Made by a program: the position numbers and the translations under genes. Shown here one piece after another: positions 3,749 to 26,378 of a DNA stretch of 37,132 nucleotides. The number at the start of each line of letters is the position of its first letter. Position 1 is the first letter of the stretch. The notes beneath the pieces were generated by a model, which worked only from the letters and a program-made list of their open reading frames with translations, was not told the origin of the DNA and made no database searches. The stretch lies in the sequence record SRR22947725_531; one strand, written 5' to 3'.

Positions 3749-3839
3749 AAATATCAAAAAAAATCATCTCCGTGACATCATATGCGCAAACGGCAGAATT
3801 AACCCGTTAAGCACATAACCTAAAAATAATGGAGATACC

Positions 3840-4025
3840 ATGAATAAAGTCACTAAACTAGCACTTGCCGGCGTTGTCGGAGGTGCCCTCATCTTTGGAA
3901 CTACAGGTTGCAGTTCTTCTTGCGAAACTACTTGTAGTGAAAAGGCCAGCTGCAAAGCCAATGGCGAATGTAAAGGAGCTGAAAAGTGCAAAGCCAATGG
4001 CAAGTGCAAAAGTGAAGCTAAATAA
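3840..4025 (+). CDS. Cys/Lys-rich RiPP precursor peptide for the adjacent MNIO, with signal peptide and lipobox
   Basis: GGAG RBS; MNKVTK, hydrophobic stretch, TTGC24; mature part has 6 more Cys, C32-C56 spaced every 6 residues; directly upstream of DUF692. Confidence 0.85.
   Translation: MNKVTKLALAGVVGGALIFGTTGCSSSCETTCSEKASCKANGECKGAEKCKANGKCKSEAK
3951..4001 (+). repeat. Internal duplication in precursor: TGCAAAGCCAATGGC x2 (CKANG), 36-bp period
   Basis: Identical 15-mers at 3951-3965 and 3987-4001. Confidence 0.85.
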
Positions 4026-4038
4026 TTAAGGGCCTTTA

Positions 4039-4061
4039 TCCAGGAACCAATGGTTCCTGGA
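4039..4061 (+). promoter_or_regulatory. Intergenic hairpin between precursor and MNIO genes
   Basis: Perfect inverted repeat TCCAGGAACCA-A-TGGTTCCTGGA, no strong U-tract. Confidence 0.7.
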
Positions 4062-4069
4062 ATCAATTT

Positions 4070-4894
4070 ATGGATAACTACCCAAACTTAGGAATTGGCA
4101 TTGGCTTAAGGGTTGATCACTATTCAGAAATTTTTGAAAAATGGCCTAAACTAGGCTTCTTTGAGATCATTTCAGAAAACTTTATGGTCGATGCCGGTCT
4201 CCCTCTAAAAAACCTCGAAAGAATCCTTGAGAGGTACCCGGTAGTTCAACATGGTGTTTCTCTGTCAATTGCCTCGGCCGAAGAACTTGACTTTGATTAC
4301 CTCAAAAAGCTCAAAAAACTCTGTAAGTTCACCCAAACTCCTTGGGTTTCTGATCACTTATGCTGGACCCAAGCCCACAGCCACAACTACCATGATTTAC
4401 TGCCTTTGCCCTACACTGAGGAATATGCCAACTTTATAGCCAATAAAGCGAGAATTGTCCAGGATTATCTCGAACTCCCTTTTGCTTTAGAAAACCTTTC
4501 CAGCTATGTCAGCTTTGAAGAATCAACGATGAGTGAGTGGCAGTTCTATAGTGAAATTGTAAAGCGCTCTAAAACTCATATGATGCTGGACATCAACAAT
4601 GTCTTTGTTTCGTCAGTAAATCACCATTTCGAACCTATGACTTACCTCGAGAATTTACCTCATGAGCGGATTTTACAAGTTCACTTAGCAGGTCACAGCC
4701 GACTCGACAATGGTCTTATTCTCGATACCCATGACAATTACGTCTGTGATGAAGTCTGGCAGTTATACCAATACATTTACCAGGCCACCGGTGGTGTCAG
4801 TACCCTTCTTGAATGGGATGATAATTTCATACCTCTAGAGGAAACTATTGCTGAAGCGAATAAGGCAAAATTGTTTCAGGAGAAAATACTCTGA
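4070..4894 (+). CDS. Multinuclear non-haem iron-dependent oxidative enzyme (MNIO, DUF692; BufB/HvfB/MbnB-like)
   Basis: GIGLR..H, EIISENF, HGVSLSI, SDHLC, LLPLP, ENLSSY, LDINN, HLAGH, DTHD, LLEWD metal-ligand motifs. Confidence 0.95.
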   Translation: MDNYPNLGIGIGLRVDHYSEIFEKWPKLGFFEIISENFMVDAGLPLKNLERILERYPVVQHGVSLSIASAEELDFDYLKKLKKLCKFTQTPWVSDHLCWTQAHSHNYHDLLPLPYTEEYANFIANKARIVQDYLELPFALENLSSYVSFEESTMSEWQFYSEIVKRSKTHMMLDINNVFVSSVNHHFEPMTYLENLPHERILQVHLAGHSRLDNGLILDTHDNYVCDEVWQLYQYIYQATGGVSTLLEWDDNFIPLEETIAEANKAKLFQEKIL

Positions 4895-5745
4895 TGACAA
4901 CCCCAGCCTCTCTTAAGGAGTTACAACAACGTATGGGCCATGCTGTTTGCACGCCCTTTTCATGGGATAGCAAAAATCCTGAAGAGTTTAATCTTCAAGA
5001 AGAAAACTATTCGCCCCAATTATTAGAGGCCATTTCTGAAAATGGGAAGATCACAGCAGTCCAAAGATTAGCCACTTACAATCGCGGCTACTGGTTCCGG
5101 CTTTTCACCGTTCTTCAGGGCGAGTTCCCCACCTTAATAAAGCTCATTAACTACAACGAGTTTAACCGACTTGCTCAAGAGTACCTCCAGGCATTTCCTT
5201 CTCAGTCACAGGTCCTTAATTACCTAGCGGATTATTTCTTAGAATTCATGAGCTTGGATCACCGGTGGAATAAAGCCGACTTAAGAAAAGCAGCTGAACT
5301 TGATTACTATTACATAAAAGCTTTCGATGCCGCCCAAGCTGAACCTCTTGACCCCACAAAGCTTTCTCAAAGCGAGCTTGAAACTCTTGACCAAAAGATC
5401 TTTTATCTTCAAAAGCACGCCTTTCTTTATCGCGAAGACAAAGCTTTCATGGAATTGCGCAAGACCGCCATAAAGGATGAAGACCTCCCGGTAAAATTAC
5501 CCAAGAAACAAACCAAATCATTTCTTGTATTTCGAAATCTAGTTTCGACTCTGGAGAGTGTTGAAATCACTGAGCTTCAGTACTCTATACTCAAAGCCAT
5601 CGAGAAAGGGCATACATTCTCCAAGGCAATTGAAAATACTTTTGATAATCTACCTGAAGAGCAAAGCATAGAAACTGCGCCACAGATAGGGCAATGGTTT
5701 AAACAATGGGTCTCATGGGGAATTTTCACCCTCAATCCCATATGA
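4894..5745 (+). CDS. DUF2063-family MNIO partner protein (BufC/HvfC-like)
   Basis: RLATYNRGYWFRL..L..EFP, F..LA..YL..FPS motif; translationally coupled to DUF692. Confidence 0.88.
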   Translation: MTTPASLKELQQRMGHAVCTPFSWDSKNPEEFNLQEENYSPQLLEAISENGKITAVQRLATYNRGYWFRLFTVLQGEFPTLIKLINYNEFNRLAQEYLQAFPSQSQVLNYLADYFLEFMSLDHRWNKADLRKAAELDYYYIKAFDAAQAEPLDPTKLSQSELETLDQKIFYLQKHAFLYREDKAFMELRKTAIKDEDLPVKLPKKQTKSFLVFRNLVSTLESVEITELQYSILKAIEKGHTFSKAIENTFDNLPEEQSIETAPQIGQWFKQWVSWGIFTLNPI

Positions 5746-5752
5746 AAATTGA

Positions 5753-6109
5753 TCATTCCCACATATTAACTAGATCGTCTTCTGCTTTAACCGCCAAATC
5801 TACACTACCATAAATTTCAACAACTTTCTCTAGGTAAACGAGCTCAAAAAGAGCAAGCACTAAGGGTTTTGTCGCAACAACTTTCAGTACATTGCCCATC
5901 TCTTTAACCTTTCTATAGCAGTTTAGAATCATTCCCAAACCGGAACTGTCCATGTACTCTACATGTGATAGGTCAATGATTATTAAAGGACTCTTTGTCA
6001 GAGACTTTAATAAATACTTCGAGATCTCATCGACGTTACTGACATCCAAGCGCTCTTCATTTAAATGAAAAACTGCTACTGTGTTTTGTTTTAAAGATTC
6101 AACAATCAT
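5753..6109 (-). CDS. STAS-domain anti-sigma-factor antagonist (RsbV/SpoIIAA/HsbA/SypA-like)
   Basis: RLD, IIDLSHVEYMDSSGLG with the phosphorylatable Ser, 118 aa. Confidence 0.93.
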   Translation of the reverse strand: MIVESLKQNTVAVFHLNEERLDVSNVDEISKYLLKSLTKSPLIIIDLSHVEYMDSSGLGMILNCYRKVKEMGNVLKVVATKPLVLALFELVYLEKVVEIYGSVDLAVKAEDDLVNMWE

Positions 6110-6110
6110 C

Positions 6111-7655
6111 TTATTCCTCCTTTTTAGCTGTTAAACATATGCAATTGAGCCCATTCTCTAGAACCGAGTAATCGACATTCTGACAAATTTTCTCCAATAA
6201 ATACAGGCCAAAGCCATTCACTTGTTGGCTGCAATCTGGGAGCTTTATTTCATGGGGCTGAAACTGAGGGCCGCTGTATACAAAAGAGACCTGGTGGCAA
6301 GAATCTATTGTTTTACAGACTCTAACCTCAATCGTAGGGTCTTCGTTTCCTGTATACTTGAGGATATTTGTAAAGGCTTCAATAGCTGCAACCTTAAATA
6401 GATCTCCCTCTTTGATGAGGTTCTTATTTAAGAACTTATTTAAGCGAAAGACTTCATCCATATCTCGCCGCAGCTTTATTGAAGCCTCCCCTCTTTCGGT
6501 ATGTGCCCATTTGAGAATTATAGAGATCAGGGTCATATCATCCTGACTATGACATTTACTTTGGGCCTGCTGCAGAATGTTATCGACGACACTCTGAGAA
6601 CTCTCTTCATCGCAACTGAGGCATGACATAACTAAGCTGCTTGTATCTGTCGAATTGGAATCATTTAGAGCATCGGTGATTCCATCTGAAAAGATGACGA
6701 TCTTGTCACCGCGATTAGCATGAAAACTTTTCTCCTCATACTCAACATCTTTGATCACCCCAAGAGGTACATCACTACTCTTTAACTGCAGAACAGTGGC
6801 GCCCTGATCTTTTAATAAAATAGCTCCGGGATGACCGCAGTTTACATAACTGACTTCGCCTTCCTTTATATTAAGACGCAAATAAAAAAGAGTAATAAAC
6901 GCTTTAGTCTGCTGTAGTTTATCTGCAAGTTCTCTGCCCACACTTGAGGTTATCTCACTTATAGTCGGTAAAGATTGCCCCTCTTTTTCCTTTAAAAGGA
7001 TATTTATTTGTTGATGAATTACATTTTTAGCCGCGGCACCGATTAAAGCGGCACTCAGACCTTTCCCCATCACATCAGCCAATATAACATCGTAGCATTC
7101 ATTCTTGTGAGGAATGACCTCATAAAAGTCACCGCTTACTTTTCTTTGGGCACTAGCATGAACTGCGAAATCTACAGAAGGACCAAACGGGTTATGACTA
7201 AAAACTAGCTGTTTCTGAAGGATTTCCGCAACATCATTCTCTTTAGTATGATTAACAAGAGCAGTCAACTCTGCTACTTTTGAATGATGCTCCCGCAAGC
7301 CTTCCTGTAATGCTTCTTGTACATCTACATTTTTACAAGGTTTAACTAAATACTTAAAAATCACACCTGAATTTAAAGCATCAACTGCAGTCCCGTATTC
7401 GCCCTGGCCTGTAAGTAGTATTGTTGAAGTTGTTGGTGACAGCTTTTGAACTTCTTGAAGGAATTCTATGCCATCCATCCCTGGCATACTCAAATCGCTT
7501 AAAATTACTGGATACTCACCCTTCTCAATGATCATTTCCAAAGCTTTAATCGGACTGGAACAGACTTCAACTTCAAAATTTGTTCGAAGCCTTAAGCTTA
7601 AAGCATTTAAAACTTCTGGTTCATCATCAACTAATAATATTCTATCTAGAGTCAT
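6111..7655 (-). CDS. Hybrid response regulator: REC + SpoIIE/PP2C phosphatase + RsbW-like HATPase domain
   Basis: LLVDDE, SDLSMPG, K-P (REC); VSGDFY, DVMGKG, NCGHP, FSDGI, DDMT (PP2C); EAFTNI, GFGLYLL (HATPase). Confidence 0.9.
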   Translation of the reverse strand: MTLDRILLVDDEPEVLNALSLRLRTNFEVEVCSSPIKALEMIIEKGEYPVILSDLSMPGMDGIEFLQEVQKLSPTTSTILLTGQGEYGTAVDALNSGVIFKYLVKPCKNVDVQEALQEGLREHHSKVAELTALVNHTKENDVAEILQKQLVFSHNPFGPSVDFAVHASAQRKVSGDFYEVIPHKNECYDVILADVMGKGLSAALIGAAAKNVIHQQINILLKEKEGQSLPTISEITSSVGRELADKLQQTKAFITLFYLRLNIKEGEVSYVNCGHPGAILLKDQGATVLQLKSSDVPLGVIKDVEYEEKSFHANRGDKIVIFSDGITDALNDSNSTDTSSLVMSCLSCDEESSQSVVDNILQQAQSKCHSQDDMTLISIILKWAHTERGEASIKLRRDMDEVFRLNKFLNKNLIKEGDLFKVAAIEAFTNILKYTGNEDPTIEVRVCKTIDSCHQVSFVYSGPQFQPHEIKLPDCSQQVNGFGLYLLEKICQNVDYSVLENGLNCICLTAKKEE

Positions 7656-10943: not shown

Positions 10944-12332
10944 ATGAACGGACAAAAATTTTTAGAACTAGCGGGTAAAAGAAGAAGCACAAGGCTTTTT
11001 CAAGATAAACCACTAGAAGATGAAAAAGTCAGAGAGGTTATTCAAGCCGCCTTGGAGGCTCCAACTTCATGTAATAGACAACTTCTTAAAGTAGTTGTAG
11101 TTAAAGATCCTGAAGTTAAAGCAAAATGCTGTAAGTTAAGCCATGCACAACAAAGCTACTTCTATGATGCGCCTGTCATACTTTCTGTATTCTACGACAT
11201 AAGCCTGGAAAATAGGAATCCCTGTAAAACTCCTTACATCAGTACCGGAATGGCAATACAAAATATGCTATTGATGGCTGAAGCCATGGGACTAGGGGCA
11301 ATATACTTGGGCGGCATTCGTAATCCAAAAGGTATGGAAAAAGCTTTAAATGCACCTCCATTTTTACAAAACTTAGGAGTTATATGTCTTGGTTACAGAG
11401 CAGACAACCCTCCAAAGCCAAGACACAGAAGTGTTGACGACATAATTTCGTACGATAGTTGTGCTTTTCAAGAAGCAAATTTCCTCAATGATATTCGCCC
11501 AGAGAAGTGGAACTACAAACAACTAGCAGATTTTAGGGAACAACTATTATGGTATAAAGGCATAGGTATTGATGCTAGAATTAAACATGTAGATTCAGCT
11601 CCTAGATTTTCATTAAAAAATAACTTTGTTTATCAAACTCTTGGAAGGATGATTCAAAGTATAAAGAGCCCAGCTAAGTACTTAGATGTCATGCCATTCA
11701 ATGGAGACCCTCTTCTACAACTAAAATTAATGTCTGGTAATGAAATTGATACTATCTACTCTTATGAACAAACTGAAAACATAAATAAGTACATGAGAAA
11801 AAGACTCAATGAAATTATCAGTCTAGATAAAATTGAGTTTTTGAGCAATAGCAAAACTGATGAGGTCTCCATCCCATTAGACGATAACAGTGTTGATGTA
11901 ATTAGCTGCTGCGAAAAAATCAATCAATTCCACGATCCAAAGCCACTATTAAAAGAGATTAAGAGAATTATGCGAAAAGGTGGTAAAGCCCTCTTTTTAG
12001 TAAGTAATAAACTCTACCCTCACCTGTACCATTACAAAAGGTTAAAGAATAAACAATATGCTCTTGGGCGTAATTGGAACCATGGCCCTGAATGTAAACT
12101 TTCTCATTGGGAGGTCTTAAAGCTCTTCAAGGAATTGAATTTCAAAGTAACCAGAAGTTATGGCTTAAATCCAATAGAAAATAAATTCGCAAGACTTACC
12201 TCAAAGCTTTTCAAAAAGATGAGTATGACTTCAAACTCTGATCTTTATGAAGATAAAGCACGTCATTCTTATGTAACTGAATCAAAATTAAAAAACTTTA
12301 GCGAGACACTGGCTTATGAAATCACATTATGA
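10944..12332 (+). CDS. Nitroreductase-family domain fused to a C-terminal SAM-methyltransferase-like domain
   Basis: RRSTRLF, APTSCNRQ, GMAIQNMLL.AEAMGLG, LGY (nitroreductase); IPLDDNSVDVI...DP..LLKEIKRIMRKGG (class I MTase). Confidence 0.8.
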   Translation: MNGQKFLELAGKRRSTRLFQDKPLEDEKVREVIQAALEAPTSCNRQLLKVVVVKDPEVKAKCCKLSHAQQSYFYDAPVILSVFYDISLENRNPCKTPYISTGMAIQNMLLMAEAMGLGAIYLGGIRNPKGMEKALNAPPFLQNLGVICLGYRADNPPKPRHRSVDDIISYDSCAFQEANFLNDIRPEKWNYKQLADFREQLLWYKGIGIDARIKHVDSAPRFSLKNNFVYQTLGRMIQSIKSPAKYLDVMPFNGDPLLQLKLMSGNEIDTIYSYEQTENINKYMRKRLNEIISLDKIEFLSNSKTDEVSIPLDDNSVDVISCCEKINQFHDPKPLLKEIKRIMRKGGKALFLVSNKLYPHLYHYKRLKNKQYALGRNWNHGPECKLSHWEVLKLFKELNFKVTRSYGLNPIENKFARLTSKLFKKMSMTSNSDLYEDKARHSYVTESKLKNFSETLAYEITL

Positions 12333-13587
12333 AAATGCCTTAAACAGGCTAGAACTCTGGATTAATAGTATTAGAACAGAAGATGGCTACCATGGACCTG
12401 CGATTGGCCCTAGAAGCACTCAATTAGGTTGTTGTCTTGTTGGCTTCGACTGGCGCTATGAAGGTCTGCTCAATGGCTGGATAAACTTACATAAATCAAC
12501 AGGTAAGATGAAATACCTGAAAAGAATACAAGAAGATTTAGATCAAATCACTAATGCTCAATTATTAAATGGTACTTTTCGAAACTCTCATTTCAGCGAA
12601 GGTCCATTTGAAGGTGGGATGCCCCACGAACCTGCCATGTTAAATGCTGCAGTGAAAGCGGCAGTTTATCTGGAGAAACATAAGTATGGCAACACTCATA
12701 ATTTAAGAGAGTGTGTAAGGAAATACATTGATACATACTTAATAAGTCACTTATGGAATAAGCTATTGAAAACATTCAATAATTGGCCATTTAGTGAGTT
12801 TGAGAAATACAGCCCATACTGTGTAGCTGCAGCCGTAGAATTAATTTATGATTACGGAATTTGGCAAGATAAATTAGAGAATTACGAAAGCTACATAGTG
12901 GCAGCTACTGAGTCAATGATAAAAGTTCAATGCACAGTCGGTACCTGCGCTGGAGGATTCCCCACTCTTTCTTCTCATACCAAGGGTTTTGTTCCGTTAT
13001 TTACTGCCAGATGCTTTCGAGCATTACAGGTTGCCAACCTACTGACTAATGACAACCGGTATATTCATTCCTTAGACAAAGCTAAGGCCTACGTAAGAAG
13101 GTCAGCCCTTGATGAAGGTGGCTTTTATCGCTTAACATACAATGACCGTGAACCTATAACTTACCCATTAATGATAGGTGCTGTAGCTAGTATACTTGAA
13201 TCATTCAGCAGAGTCGATGACCTCAAAAAAGATGAACTTGAACGGCACCTGCCTTTAATTCTTAGCGAACAGCTCCCAAGTGGAGGTTTTGCAACAGCCA
13301 TAGGGTTCAATAAGACCAAGAAGCCAAAAGATAATGAATTAAGGGACTACCGTGATTTGTTCCCTGTTTGTGCCTGGAATGACAAAGTCTTTCATCTACT
13401 CACAACGGTAGCTGATGGTACTACCATATGTAAAAGTTCTATAAAGGCCAACCTACAAGTTAAGATAAACGGTAAGGTTGGTACCTACATTGAAACTCCC
13501 CAGGAAATTACCCTTATGAATAATAAACATCAAATAGTTTATCAATGGCTCAAAAAAAATAGCTGGCCACTGAAAATAGCACTTTAA
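12316..13587 (+). CDS. Uncharacterised protein, probable (alpha/alpha) toroid fold
   Basis: Repeated Q..(N/S)G(G/T)F-type motifs (QLLNGTF, ALDEGGF, QLPSGGF) and TG..KYL; overlaps the upstream gene. Confidence 0.6.
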   Translation: MKSHYENALNRLELWINSIRTEDGYHGPAIGPRSTQLGCCLVGFDWRYEGLLNGWINLHKSTGKMKYLKRIQEDLDQITNAQLLNGTFRNSHFSEGPFEGGMPHEPAMLNAAVKAAVYLEKHKYGNTHNLRECVRKYIDTYLISHLWNKLLKTFNNWPFSEFEKYSPYCVAAAVELIYDYGIWQDKLENYESYIVAATESMIKVQCTVGTCAGGFPTLSSHTKGFVPLFTARCFRALQVANLLTNDNRYIHSLDKAKAYVRRSALDEGGFYRLTYNDREPITYPLMIGAVASILESFSRVDDLKKDELERHLPLILSEQLPSGGFATAIGFNKTKKPKDNELRDYRDLFPVCAWNDKVFHLLTTVADGTTICKSSIKANLQVKINGKVGTYIETPQEITLMNNKHQIVYQWLKKNSWPLKIAL

Positions 13588-17830: not shown

Positions 17831-18688
17831 ATGAGTAAAAATAATAGAATAGCAATAATTATGAGATCTAAGAATGAGCAACCTTATACGGATAAGGCAC
17901 TCAGAAATTTAAAGAACCAAACATTCACCAATTACAAACTATACAATATAGACTCTGGCTCTACAGATGGAACTTTAGAAGTCATCAAAAAGTATAACGA
18001 CAAAGTAATTTCTATACCTCAAGAATCATACATTCCTGGACAGGTATTAAATGAAATGATTTCCCAAACTAATGAACAACTAATTGTCTTTCTTAATGCA
18101 GATGCCATACCGACAGATAAATTTTGGCTTGAAAGACTTTTGGAGCCAATTTTGGCAGATAAAGTCGATGCAACCATATCACGTCAAATTTCGAGAGATG
18201 ATGCTTACTTCATAGTACATGACGATTATAAACGTGGATATAAATCAAGAAACATACAGAAGAATGCTCATGTAATGTTCTCCGCTGTAGCATGTGCTTT
18301 TAAGAAGGAAATGTGGGAAACAGTAAAGTTTTATACAGATGGTTATGCAGAAGACCTGGTGTGGGCTACTCAGTGTTCACAAAAAGGTTTTAGATTTCTA
18401 TATGTACATGATTCTATTGTCGAACACTCTCATAACTATTCCCTTCAACAACTCTTTAAGAAAAAATTCAGACATGGAAGAGTTTACTTCAGACTTTTAG
18501 GTCAAAAACCAAATTTCCTTAAGCAAACCATTTCATGGAGTAAAGAGATTATCAGGGACCTACTTAAAGCTATGAAAAATATGAAATTACAGACCATACC
18601 ATACAATATTGTCTATAGATCAATAATTCACTTAGCAGTCTATAAAGGCATTAGATTCGCACACATAAATACGGAGAAAAAACTATGA
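17831..18688 (+). CDS. Glycosyltransferase family 2 (rhamnosyltransferase-like)
   Basis: RSKNE, IDSGSTDGT, FLNADA.P, AED..W, HSHNY. Confidence 0.9.
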   Translation: MSKNNRIAIIMRSKNEQPYTDKALRNLKNQTFTNYKLYNIDSGSTDGTLEVIKKYNDKVISIPQESYIPGQVLNEMISQTNEQLIVFLNADAIPTDKFWLERLLEPILADKVDATISRQISRDDAYFIVHDDYKRGYKSRNIQKNAHVMFSAVACAFKKEMWETVKFYTDGYAEDLVWATQCSQKGFRFLYVHDSIVEHSHNYSLQQLFKKKFRHGRVYFRLLGQKPNFLKQTISWSKEIIRDLLKAMKNMKLQTIPYNIVYRSIIHLAVYKGIRFAHINTEKKL

Positions 18689-19812
18689 GCCGATTTACTG
18701 TAAATTCTGGCAAAATTTTTGACCGAGTTGTCAAGAGAGATTTAGATACTGCTGTAGAGAGGTGTCTTGCCCTGCCCCAATCTAATCTCGTAGAGGCAAT
18801 AATAATAATGGGTTCTTATGGTCGTGGTGAAGGTACCGCCCTACAAACCAATTCAGGGTTAAAGCCGTTTAATGATTATGATTTGGTCGTCATCGGTAAA
18901 AAAATGTCTGAATTTAAACGCAAAAAATTCCAAAAAGTCCTTCAAGATCTTGAAGTGATAGTTAGCAAGGAACTCGGGATAACTGTTGATTATTTTTTAC
19001 ATACCATAAATAGCCTTAAAAGAGCAGAATTAAGCTTAATGAATTATGAAATGAAAAATGGTCATATGGTTTTGTACGGCAATGACAATATTCTTAATAT
19101 TATGCCTAACTACATAAAAGTGCCATTGATTGAAGGCACTCGACTTCTTCTAAATAGAGGCAAACTACTACTCGATATTAAAAAAACTTTGACTCTTGAA
19201 GGGCACTTCCATGAAAAAGATAATTTACTGTATAGGAAATTTTTGAATAAGACAGTTTTAGCCATTGGTGATGCAGCACTGATTGCTAAAGACTTATATG
19301 CGATTTCATATCAAATCAAAAAAACTAAGATTAATTACCTTACTGATGTACCAAATTTGGAATGGATTATAAAAGAATATAAAAATGCCATCGATTTTAA
19401 ATTTACTGGGGATACAGGCTATCTTCCCCAGAATATTGAAAAGTTTTTTTATAAATTACAAAAGGTTTTTCTAGAATTTTATTATTGGTTTGAAGGTGTT
19501 CGCCTCGGTAAAGTTATATGCTCTTCAGAAGGTCACCTCGAATGCATTGAAAATATAAAGAAGCCACTGCCTCTTTTTAATGTTATACGAAATGCAGTAA
19601 TGAATCTTAAAGAATTTGGATGGCAATTAAGGCAAACTCCTAGATGGCTACTAAAACACCCTAGAGAACGATTATTCGTTGTTTATCCCCTCTTACTCAA
19701 AACTAAGCGTTCACTTAAGGAAACAAAGCTTATTTCTCTTCTTGAAGCATGTGATGAAAAACCAGAATCAGGCATAACCAAATTTTATAACTTAAGGAAT
19801 TGTTACCTATGA
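18685..19812 (+). CDS. Pol-beta-superfamily nucleotidyltransferase-like protein
   Basis: MGSYGRGEG...NDYDLVV (GS...DxD signature) followed by a helical C-terminal region. Confidence 0.75.
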   Translation: MSRFTVNSGKIFDRVVKRDLDTAVERCLALPQSNLVEAIIIMGSYGRGEGTALQTNSGLKPFNDYDLVVIGKKMSEFKRKKFQKVLQDLEVIVSKELGITVDYFLHTINSLKRAELSLMNYEMKNGHMVLYGNDNILNIMPNYIKVPLIEGTRLLLNRGKLLLDIKKTLTLEGHFHEKDNLLYRKFLNKTVLAIGDAALIAKDLYAISYQIKKTKINYLTDVPNLEWIIKEYKNAIDFKFTGDTGYLPQNIEKFFYKLQKVFLEFYYWFEGVRLGKVICSSEGHLECIENIKKPLPLFNVIRNAVMNLKEFGWQLRQTPRWLLKHPRERLFVVYPLLLKTKRSLKETKLISLLEACDEKPESGITKFYNLRNCYL

Positions 19813-24156: not shown

Positions 24157-24185
24157 AATACCCTATGAAAATAATTGGTACTATA

Positions 24186-26378
24186 ATGGAATTCAGAAAA
24201 CAAAATAACAATAAGCAAACTAAAGCTACTAGCTCAAAGAAGTTAAGTATTAAAAAAATGCTTGACAAGATTCAGCTAGAAGATGAATTCATTGAAAAAG
24301 AATTCTCTAGAATTGCTTCTGCAACACCAATTCCAATGCCTGAATTCACCTACAGCCAAAAATCATGCGATGCAAAATCAATCCTAACCCAAACGAAATC
24401 AACTGATTATGACTTTAAAACAAGTATAAAAGGTTTTAATAAAAAAGATTTCCTTTCAAATTTTGATTGGTCGAAGATCATAATAAACATTAAATTCAAA
24501 ATCCTATTATTTGCGATTGTTGCAGTTCTTAGCAGTTCAGCCGCAGCATATTATGCATTTCTACAATGGGATTCAAAAATACGTTACTCCTCAACAAGTC
24601 GCTTAATGTACAAAACGGTTAAAGACAAAAGCCGTCAGGTCCTAGGTAAAGCAACTTCCATAAAGATGATTGGTTCAAAAAGTAACCTAAGAAAGGTATT
24701 GGAAGATAAACCTGACTATGACTACAGCATTGGTCAATTGTCACATCAACTGAAAGTAAGCATTGATAGTAAAACTGGCATTGTAACTATTAATGTTAAT
24801 GATGCTGATAAAAATAAAGCTGTAGAATTTGCAAACAGTATTGCTGAAATCGCACTTATTGAAAATAAGAATTACTATAGGGCCGCATTTCATTCAAAGT
24901 ACCAAAACTTAATGAAGCAAATAGCATTAGCTGAAAAGTATCTTAATGCTCAGGAACGAAGAGTCGTCGACTTTATGAGTCAAAGTGGAATGATTAATAG
25001 TAAAGAATCATTCAGAGTATACTTCGAAGGTTTGAACATTCAGGAGAGGTCTTTCCTAAACGCTCAAATAAACTTAGAGCAGTATTTAATTGAACTTAAA
25101 GTTCTCGAAGATGAATATTCAATAATGCCTAATGAAGTCATAAGGAACTCTTATGAGGATAACCCAGTTAAAGCTCGCTTAACTAATACAAAACTAGCAT
25201 TACTTGATGCACAAATTACTTACGGAGAAGATAATCCAAATGTAAGTAGTATTCAAGATACAATAAAAAGGCTCCAGGATCAGTTAGCCACACAAGATGT
25301 AAAGTCAACTCTTCAAAAAGTATATATGCCTAACTTAGCGAAAGAGAGGCTCAAAATGGAGATCGAAAAGAAGAAAGGTCAGATAAAAGCGCAAAGAACT
25401 AGATTGCAAACGCTAAAAAGTGACATTACAGAAAGACAGCTTGACTTAGGTAAAATCCCTCAAAAACAATTGACATTAGAAGCTCAGCTAAGAAAAAAGC
25501 AAGCTTATGAAGATTTACTGAATAATCTTCGTCGAAAAGTTAATGATGTTGAAATCTCCATGAAAAGTGAGACAACTGATTTGGCTTTTTATGAACAAGC
25601 GACCAATGCATCGACAATTAAACCAACAAAATATCTAGCATTACCTGTAGGAGCATTAGTATTCACTTCTTTAATTGGTTTCTTTTTTATCAGCTTTAGT
25701 GAAATTCTCGATAAGAAAATCTATACAAGAAAACAACTTTCAATAAATTTTGATACACCTTGTGTCGCTACTGTTCAAAAAGATAAACAAGATGGTCTTT
25801 ATATCCTTAGAGATATTGCTTCATTTATTAAAAGTGAACAAAAAGCAGTCATCAAAACGCTAGCCTTTACAAGTTCCTGTAAAAAGGAAGGTAAATCTAC
25901 TTTCGCTCATAAAATGGCAAAATATTACCATAACCTGGGCTTAAACATCTTATACCTTAACCTCGATCATACTGATCTCTCTGCATGTGAGATCCCTCAA
26001 GATAAATTACTCAATAACTACATAGAGTCAGACTTAAGTTATGAAAGCTTTTTAATAAATGGCTCTACTCCTGAATTGAACTGCATATTCAATAATGATT
26101 TAATCGAATCTTTTAAAACTCGCCGTTTTGAAGGTTTATGGGTAAGCCTTAAAACTGACTATGAATTAATAATCATTGATCTACCTGCCGTTTTAGAAAG
26201 CAGCCTAACTTTAGATTTGTTAGAGAAAATCGACTTCAATTTATTAGTCATTGACTCGGAAAACACAAACACCGATAAACTTAAAAAAACTTTCCAGACA
26301 TTAGAAAACCGTACCCTTCAGCCACATGGCCTGATACTCAATAAAATCACCCCTAAATTTATGAAGATTAACTTATGA
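24186..26378 (+). CDS. Polysaccharide co-polymerase (Wzc/GumC-like) with C-terminal BY-kinase-like ATPase domain
   Basis: Two TM segments flanking a coiled-coil periplasmic region with YG..NP.V; TSS...EGKST (Walker A), IIIDLP; start placed at ATG 24186, downstream of the sigma-54 site (track start 24165). Confidence 0.88.
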   Translation: MEFRKQNNNKQTKATSSKKLSIKKMLDKIQLEDEFIEKEFSRIASATPIPMPEFTYSQKSCDAKSILTQTKSTDYDFKTSIKGFNKKDFLSNFDWSKIIINIKFKILLFAIVAVLSSSAAAYYAFLQWDSKIRYSSTSRLMYKTVKDKSRQVLGKATSIKMIGSKSNLRKVLEDKPDYDYSIGQLSHQLKVSIDSKTGIVTINVNDADKNKAVEFANSIAEIALIENKNYYRAAFHSKYQNLMKQIALAEKYLNAQERRVVDFMSQSGMINSKESFRVYFEGLNIQERSFLNAQINLEQYLIELKVLEDEYSIMPNEVIRNSYEDNPVKARLTNTKLALLDAQITYGEDNPNVSSIQDTIKRLQDQLATQDVKSTLQKVYMPNLAKERLKMEIEKKKGQIKAQRTRLQTLKSDITERQLDLGKIPQKQLTLEAQLRKKQAYEDLLNNLRRKVNDVEISMKSETTDLAFYEQATNASTIKPTKYLALPVGALVFTSLIGFFFISFSEILDKKIYTRKQLSINFDTPCVATVQKDKQDGLYILRDIASFIKSEQKAVIKTLAFTSSCKKEGKSTFAHKMAKYYHNLGLNILYLNLDHTDLSACEIPQDKLLNNYIESDLSYESFLINGSTPELNCIFNNDLIESFKTRRFEGLWVSLKTDYELIIIDLPAVLESSLTLDLLEKIDFNLLVIDSENTNTDKLKKTFQTLENRTLQPHGLILNKITPKFMKINL

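Follow-up and report, generated by a model that had tools for sequence, protein, structure and literature searches.

A Three-Gene Bufferin-Type Operon with a Predicted Lipid-Anchored Cys-Lys Repeat Precursor

Organization of the Locus

[quoted passage not shown] The locus consists of the gene for a short Cys-rich precursor peptide, the gene for a putative maturase of the multinuclear nonheme iron-dependent oxidase (MNIO; DUF692) family, and the gene for a DUF2063 partner protein (Table 1). The three open reading frames (ORFs) are closely spaced. A GGAG motif lies 7 nt before the precursor ATG, the precursor gene is 44 nt upstream of the MNIO gene on the same strand with no terminator call between them, and the MNIO stop codon overlaps the start of the partner gene as TGATG. 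Because the STAS gene downstream of the partner gene (5753-6109) is convergent and the upstream aminotransferase gene ends 91 nt before the precursor gene, we delimit the unit to these three genes.

Table 1. Features of the operon and their positions in the window
Feature	Position	Strand	Basis
Promoter-like site GTGACA-16-CAGAAT in the 91-nt gap 5' of the precursor gene	3772..3799	+	weak lead only
Precursor gene, 61 aa	3840..4025	+	ORF call
Perfect 10-bp stem-loop between precursor stop and MNIO start	4039..4061	+	folding
MNIO (DUF692) maturase, BufB type, 274 aa	4070..4894	+	PF05114, NF050167
DUF2063 partner protein, 283 aa (type-1 MNIO partner, PME1, BufC/HvfC class)	4894..5745	+	PF09836

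Marine-metagenome contigs that are 95-99% alike to the locus provide a comparison between strains; these are short contigs from four runs of three studies, one of them possibly the source of the window itself. Both strain differences in the precursor ORF (2/2) and 10 of the 11 in the MNIO ORF are synonymous, which argues that the genes of the operon are real and under selection.

The Precursor Peptide and Its Family

The precursor reads MNKVTKLALAGVVGGALIFGTTG-C24-SSS-C28-ETT-C32-SEKAS-C38-KANGE-C44-KGAEK-C50-KANGK-C56-KSEAK. An MNKVTK start and a hydrophobic stretch lead to TTG-C24, an SSS linker, C28 and C32, and then four hexapeptide repeats. The spacing from C24 to C28 is four residues, that within the core from C28 to C56 is 4, 6, 6, 6, and 6, and each of the four repeat cysteines (C38, C44, C50, and C56) is followed by lysine. 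The EGKCG motif of the Buf_EGKCG/oxazolin peptides is absent; the motifs are instead ASCKA, GECKG, EKCKA, and GKCKS. A preprint (10.1101/2025.11.18.689057) divides the precursors of MNIO-PME1 pairs into three groups, namely DUF2282, Lys-Cys (EGKCG), and Cys-Lys, and with multiple Cys-Lys motifs (four CK) beside such a pair the window precursor fits the Cys-Lys captophorin group as defined there.

A search with the single sequence against 5.8 billion clusters returned two relatives, a three-sequence profile run against 1.84 billion representatives returned six (E<=1e-3), and a six-sequence profile run against the 5.8 billion clusters returned 11 (E<=0.01). The resulting family comprises 11 sequences of 51-84 aa, a count that leaves out P0008, a BufA2-like double domain. 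Members share an MNK-type start and a hydrophobic stretch, then a box of the form [GSTA]-[TLV]-[GS] directly before a cysteine, followed mostly by SSD and by three to seven repeats with six-residue Cys spacing. Across the family, 37 of 47 core cysteines precede a lysine, and one member (P0003) reads EGKCK three times. C24, C38, C44, and C50 are invariant in all six aligned sequences, while C28 and C32 are restricted to the window precursor and P0002, P0003, and P0004. An initial reading made from the window alone (hereafter the sequence-only reading) had counted up to six modifiable cysteines; of these, only C38, C44, and C50 are invariant in the six-sequence alignment, C56 is a fourth Cys-Lys site, and C28 and C32 are found only in the closest members.

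In a profile comparison with 17 BufA2-like precursors of neighbor loci, the repeats align with the C-x5-C-x5-C part of those domains (hhalign probability 79.5%, E 1.5e-5, over 23 columns), a sub-threshold match. In our reading the family is a pared-down relation of Buf2 and does not belong to the BufA2 model. The sequence-only reading agrees with these results in placing the precursor, the DUF692 gene, and the DUF2063 gene in one operon as a minimal bufferin-type RiPP cluster, for which the ORFs, the matches to PF05114 and PF09836, and the TGATG overlap speak; in its account of the peptide, with a basic N-terminus, a hydrophobic stretch, TTG-C24-SSS, and cysteines every four and then every six residues; and in describing motifs that differ from EGKCG and resemble BufA2 loosely.

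Two pairs of family members and MNIO relatives share a longest-contig size, P0007 and P0017 at 27021 nt and P0011 and P0016 at 1497 nt, P0017 being an MNIO. This suggests, short of proof, that the two members of each pair are neighbors. Separately, the family member P0004 (68 aa, by name from a metagenome-assembled genome (MAG) of the Lentisphaerales) keeps the signal and the lipobox, but its Cys-Lys repeats are lost from about residue 35 onward, perhaps because the copy is frameshifted or decayed.

The Maturase and the Partner Protein

The maturase matches PF05114 over model positions 1-262 of 263 (E 5e-101; 337.8 bits, cut-off 25) and passes the BufB equivalog model NF050167 (324.7 bits, cut-off 310). 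It scores below the HvfB model NF003818 (247.1 bits, cut-off 360) and the MbnB model (47.5 bits against 325), and the cut-offs of the ApyH and ChrH models were likewise not reached. Its closest solved structure is PDB 3BWW (E 6e-44); PDB 7DZ9 was matched at E 4e-10.

The preprint cited above reports two features that set Cys-Lys-type MNIOs apart: an Asp (BufB2-Asp251) at the place of FonB-Phe250, beside the catalytic Asp, and the loss of the second N-terminal Arg (the FonB-Arg16 site). The window MNIO reads R14-V15 and E248-W249-D250-D251, the aligned places in 3BWW being R-R and D-F. By the criterion of the preprint (10.1101/2025.11.18.689057) the enzyme is thus of the Cys-Lys captophorin type, with Asp at the FonB-Phe250 place and the second Arg lost, the equivalence of positions being drawn through the 3BWW alignment. 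Of 37 distinct MNIOs in the fetched clade, 34 retain D251, and EWDD is found in 105 of the 120 best MNIO relatives. With the D251 determinant on the one side and Cys-Lys at all four repeat cysteines on the other, enzyme and substrate match as far as sequence can tell.

The partner protein is assigned to PME1 by a PF09836 match above the gathering score (50.3 bits, cut-off 27.2) and by the position of its gene next to the MNIO gene; its match to NGO1945_C is sub-threshold. Its identity to six partners encoded at BufA2-type loci of the kind found in chlamydial MAGs is no higher than 23-29%, while the MNIOs of those loci are 60-67% identical to the window enzyme. The partner protein and the precursor may have changed together.

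The Predicted Lipid Anchor

We applied a lipobox rule of the PROSITE PS51257 type, which asks for six uncharged residues, two permissive positions, and [AGS]-C; the Cys has to fall within residues 15-35, and the first seven residues have to include a Lys or Arg. The rule is passed by 10 of the 11 family members, and the remaining one (P0006) misses it solely through the position of its Cys. In nine of the 11, residue 24 is the first Cys. Because a Cys-free linker of 6-18 residues parts this Cys from the repeats in seven of the 11, we assign the first Cys to the signal and not to the core. LspA (PF01252), the signal peptidase II, was found in all five related genomes searched. Taken over the family, these patterns make it likely that the precursor is lipidated at Cys24.

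Lipobox-like signals were also seen beside related MNIOs at the loci fetched for comparison (numbered with the prefix L): AITTGC, MISGC, MSQGC, and LALTGC, in L001:2591-3001, L012:19-414, and ORFs upstream of the MNIO genes in L028 and L040. Of these four loci, only L028 belonged to the control set to which the rule was applied (see below). Within the MNIO clade, predicted lipid-anchored and soluble forms of the precursor thus appear to alternate. In the window itself, two further lipobox candidates occur among the 32 ORFs of at least 100 aa, with the boxes FCSC and WTSC, which are also odd; they are too few to define the lipobox usage of the host.

Proposed Pathway and Alternative Explanations

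We propose that the three genes form a bufferin/captophorin operon and that they probably give rise to a copper-binding peptide held by a lipid anchor. The sequence itself shows which genes are present, the families to which both enzymes belong, the Asp251 determinant, the Cys-Lys repeats, and a lipobox-like Cys that is conserved. We infer the chemistry, the order of the steps, the lipidation, and the copper function from characterized relatives, and on that analogy the pathway would run as follows. Modification would come first, in the cytoplasm, where the iron-dependent MNIO, together with the DUF2063 protein, would oxidize C38, C44, C50, and C56 to 5-thiooxazoles (-4 Da per residue); for C28 and C32, either modification or a disulfide bond is conceivable. 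The precursor would then be exported by Sec, after which Lgt would place a diacylglycerol on Cys24, signal peptidase II (SPII) would cleave before this residue, and the new N-terminus would perhaps be acylated. The outcome would be a Lys-rich thiooxazole peptide of about 37 residues, tethered to the membrane and facing the periplasm, where it would sequester copper.

One alternative keeps the enzymes and the chemistry and changes only the processing, the signal being cut by signal peptidase I (SPI) to release a soluble, bufferin-like periplasmic peptide that starts at about Cys24 and carries no lipid. Several observations tell against our proposal on this point. None of the 11 family members has a Leu at position -3, nor the Val or Ile that would also be classical there, the boxes reading TTGC, ATGC, GLGC, STGC, TTSC, and TVGC; and the T at -3 and G at -1 of the window precursor equally suit the SPI rule at the same bond. 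Composition-preserving shuffles of residues 8-61 pass the lipobox rule in 686 of 20,000 cases (3.4%). The pattern alone is weak evidence, and its weight comes from conservation in the family. Most precursors beside related MNIOs have SPI-type signals, and the rule is passed by one of 17 such control precursors, which were obtained with a Cys-motif filter on 30 loci (L016-L045). The characterized Buf1 and Buf2, described in PMC11626156 as Sec-exported, thiooxazole-bearing, and protective against copper, are likewise cleaved by SPI. A soluble product, with this Cys as no more than a core residue, nevertheless gives no reason why all 11 members have a Cys at a fixed position immediately behind the hydrophobic region, or why a Ser/Asp-rich and often Cys-free linker comes next. 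Lipoprotein signals are moreover already documented in this RiPP class (PMC13056109, PMC12452194), and we regard the soluble form as unlikely.

It is also conceivable that a lipid-anchored modified peptide is made here for another role, be it another metal, redox chemistry, or the envelope, or that it carries a heterocycle other than 5-thiooxazole. Neither a copper gene, a copper-responsive regulator, nor DoxX (the BufD of some bufferin clusters) was found among the window ORFs scanned, which weighs against a copper function, although DoxX is not obligatory for bufferin clusters, since the buf2 cluster also lacks it (PMC11626156). Fusions of MerC with bufferins suggest that some systems handle other metals (PMC12452194), and the structural assignment of EGKCG peptides was disputed until 2025-26. 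Set against this, every MNIO-PME1 product characterized so far binds copper, the window MNIO passes the BufB equivalog cut-off, and the preprint 10.1101/2025.11.18.689057 reassigns oxazolin to 5-thiooxazole, reports 5-thiooxazoles in all three precursor groups, and proposes a copper function for the whole captophorin class. A role of this other kind therefore appears improbable. The small ORF could, finally, encode an ordinary Cys-rich lipoprotein that binds metal through its thiolates or that, like OmcA, is a protein of the envelope linked by disulfides; the substrate of the MNIO would then be encoded elsewhere. The precursor had no match in Pfam or NCBIfam at E<=10, BufA2 (NF050166) included; the partner protein falls far below the HvfC model NF050145 (37.7 bits, cut-off 142); and for other family members the link between precursor and enzyme is given solely by the shared longest-contig sizes, all of which count against our proposal. 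Precursor genes away from MNIO genes are known (PMC12452194), and a complex prediction of MNIO, partner, and precursor (0.47, compared with 0.66 for a control in which the partner was replaced) gave no usable answer and speaks neither for nor against. The precursor gene, however, shares strand and operon with the MNIO gene, its Cys-Lys repeats fit the Asp251 determinant, neither the OmcA family nor any other Pfam family was matched at E<=10, and Cys-rich ORFs lie upstream of the MNIO gene in most of the 30 loci from which the 17 filtered controls came. An unmodified lipoprotein is thus very improbable, and the small Cys-rich OmcA lipoprotein of Chlamydiae in particular was ruled out by the absence of a Pfam match.

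Relation to Known Systems

Among the closest known systems is the Buf2 system of Caulobacter vibrioides (bufA2-bufB2-bufC2), which likewise has three genes without DoxX, a BufB-type MNIO with Asp251, a DUF2063 partner, and a precursor with a Sec-type signal and Cys-Lys sites in C-x5-C spacing. BufA2 differs in being a folded 61-residue six-Cys domain that is cleaved by SPI, whereas in the window peptide tandem hexapeptides make up a core of about 37 residues behind a lipobox-like signal. PMC11626156 describes the C. vibrioides buf2 cluster as consisting of these three genes, reports -4.03 Da on the central cysteines, and finds the signal peptide dispensable for bufferin modification.

Another close system is lipo-NedA of Neisseria dentiae (NedA/NedBC), a small repeat peptide with an SPII-type signal that is modified by an MNIO and a partner (PMC13056109). 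There, EGKCG (Lys-Cys) repeats are combined with an HvfB-type enzyme, and in the window x-x-G-K-C-K (Cys-Lys) repeats with a BufB-type one. PMC13056109 (PNAS 2026) reports the isolation of triacylated lipo-NedA, an MNIO/partner-modified EGKCG peptide of the copper type, with -4 Da per motif, or -12 Da over its three EGKCG motifs. Lipo-NedA is lipidated after modification and copper capture at the membrane is proposed for it, while lipidation of the window peptide is a prediction. The same paper defines RiPP-lipoprotein hybrids as DAG-RiPPs and describes SPII signals in subsets of bufferins and oxazolins, and in PMC12452194 (2025) about 16% of Buf2 bufferins are predicted to carry a lipoprotein signal, and hundreds of unclassified small Cys-containing, signal-bearing ORFs upstream of MNIO genes are listed. 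The tandem short Gly/Lys-rich Cys repeats are shared with oxazolin HvfA and fontiphorin FonA, from whose enzymes the window MNIO is set apart by the Asp at the FonB-Phe250 place; according to the preprint 10.1101/2025.11.18.689057, FonBC leaves motifs with a charged residue after the Cys unprocessed (HNDCK, NACKG). Methanobactin (MbnA/MbnBC) also depends on a Cys-modifying MNIO to yield a copper ligand, and is a distant relative with another partner, a leader peptide instead of a Sec signal, and a secreted product.

Precursors of about 140 aa with a BufA2-like domain accompany the nearest sampled MNIOs (55-67% identical), which are those of Chlamydiota, and their Cys-rich part is alike in the profile comparison. 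They differ from the window precursor in having an additional N-terminal helical region and mostly SPI signals, and the gene neighborhood of the window is shared at none of the 45 fetched loci. The published signatures miss these chlamydial precursors, for which the BufA2 model gives sub-threshold scores of 25-39 bits. A third precursor type is found beside the closest fetched MNIO (68% identity; L009:2062-2373), with an SPI-like signal and KNGCSS-KNGCSG-KNGCSG repeats, which are neither Cys-Lys nor EGKCG. At a further locus (L006:2170-2496), a signal-bearing protein with GGSCG/GCGG motifs is encoded upstream of a BufA2-like precursor; in L029 the sole Cys-rich ORF listed upstream of the MNIO encodes a protein of this type, and two are encoded in L033. 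These proteins near chlamydial MNIOs may be further substrates.

The general idea of an MNIO copper peptide anchored through the lipoprotein pathway is already published and demonstrated at the bench, and the locus opens no new class. The sequence-only reading had been right about a lipobox-like signal, which is conserved in the family, and its statement that no characterized example was known is out of date in view of lipo-NedA (PMC13056109), of the lipoprotein signals of Buf2 bufferins (PMC12452194), and of the Cys-Lys precursor group already defined in 10.1101/2025.11.18.689057. What appears to be new, from the comparisons made here, is the family of short tandem x-x-G-K-C-K precursors outside all models, together with the strongly diverged partner protein, and the family may already be listed in the supplements of PMC13056109 or the datasets of the preprint 10.1101/2025.11.18.689057. 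The locus contributes a compact family of precursors to which current models are blind, the named relatives being annotated as hypothetical proteins, and offers, in four Cys-Lys hexapeptides, a very short natural substrate for the study of Cys-Lys-type enzymes and their partners. We tentatively suggest, as a possibility somewhat short of even, that peptides combining a lipobox with (x-x-G-K-C-K)n form a separate precursor family of marine Lentisphaerae-like bacteria, in which an EGKCG-style tandem build is joined to Buf2-type Cys-Lys recognition, the partner has diverged much further than the MNIO (23-29% compared with 60-67% identity), and the product is a minimal chain with three to seven thiooxazoles, unstructured and held at the membrane surface by its lipid. 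If this were so, nature would have set up, in the MNIO and the diverged partner, an experiment on what the latter recognizes.

Placement of the Host

Among species-representative genomes, the nearest MNIOs are those of Chlamydiota MAGs, where such enzymes were found in 97 of 300 sampled genomes of the phylum. A chlamydial host was nevertheless dropped on the following grounds. The wider protein search returned MNIO relatives at 70-85% identity, one of which (P0017, 74%) is named as coming from a Lentisphaeraceae MAG, and two relatives of the precursor bear names as well, as hypothetical proteins of a Lentisphaeraceae MAG (P0007) and a Lentisphaerales MAG (P0004). A tree of 37 MNIOs, whose bootstrap had not settled, puts the window sequence on a long branch (1.27, median 0.18) outside the other 36. 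None of the 30 fetched loci has a precursor of the window type, the flanking genes of the window were not matched at any of the 45 loci, and the aminotransferase was found in none of 120 sampled Chlamydiota genomes at E<=1e-30. The 910-aa TPR protein of the window had no match in the five genomes searched, and an exosortase above the cut-off occurs in only nine of 200 sampled Chlamydiota genomes.

We favor a marine Lentisphaerae-like bacterium as the host with reasonable though limited confidence, because of the names of two members of the precursor family and of one MNIO relative, which are its sole basis. On this placement the locus would extend the bufferin-type class to Lentisphaerae-like marine bacteria, and a literature search found no paper joining Lentisphaer- taxa with DUF692. 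More generally, published precursor signatures under-count such systems in the Planctomycetes-Verrucomicrobia-Chlamydiae group; supplement 2 of PMC12452194 lists Protochlamydia amoebophila with one DUF692, one DUF2063, and one DoxX protein and without a Buf1, Buf2, or EGKCG precursor.

Regulatory Features and Neighboring Genes

The two remaining features of Table 1 are candidate signals. The promoter-like site upstream of the precursor gene has 9 of 12 matches to the consensus, and the region holds eight such sites compared with 4.9 +/- 2.2 in shuffled sequences, which makes it indistinguishable from chance. The stem-loop in the gap before the MNIO gene has a folding energy of -16.9 kcal/mol (z -2.0, equalled in 9 of 200 shuffles), with no T-run 3' of it, and a strain variant (4046 A>G) leaves one of its pairs as G-U. 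It may stabilize or attenuate the transcript. As an intrinsic terminator it was ruled out, since it lacks a T-run and was not called in the promoter/terminator scan.

Downstream of the operon on the opposite strand (5753-7655), after the STAS protein (118 aa) comes a protein of 514 aa in which a response-regulator receiver, a SpoIIE/PP2C phosphatase, and a HATPase_c_2 kinase-like domain are fused. This would make a partner-switching module whose phosphatase and kinase share a single chain. From 8396 to 37132 extends a long polysaccharide locus that encodes a sugar transferase, a sigma-54 activator bearing a receiver domain, glycosyltransferases, a Wzy-like ligase, a flippase, two Wza-like exporters, a pyruvyl transferase, and the TPR protein mentioned above; the end of the window cuts its exosortase, EpsH. 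Heading this locus is a 462-aa fusion of a nitroreductase and a methyltransferase domain (10944-12332), and three of its large ORFs (12316-13587, 423 aa; 18685-19812, 375 aa; 24165-26378, 737 aa) had no Pfam match at E<=1e-5. Upstream of the operon, at 468-2443 on the opposite strand, a rhomboid protease with an N-terminal Cys-x2-Cys...Cys-x2-Cys arrangement adjoins a cytochrome c with two CxxCH motifs, whose signal ends in the lipobox-like sequence LLLWTSC.

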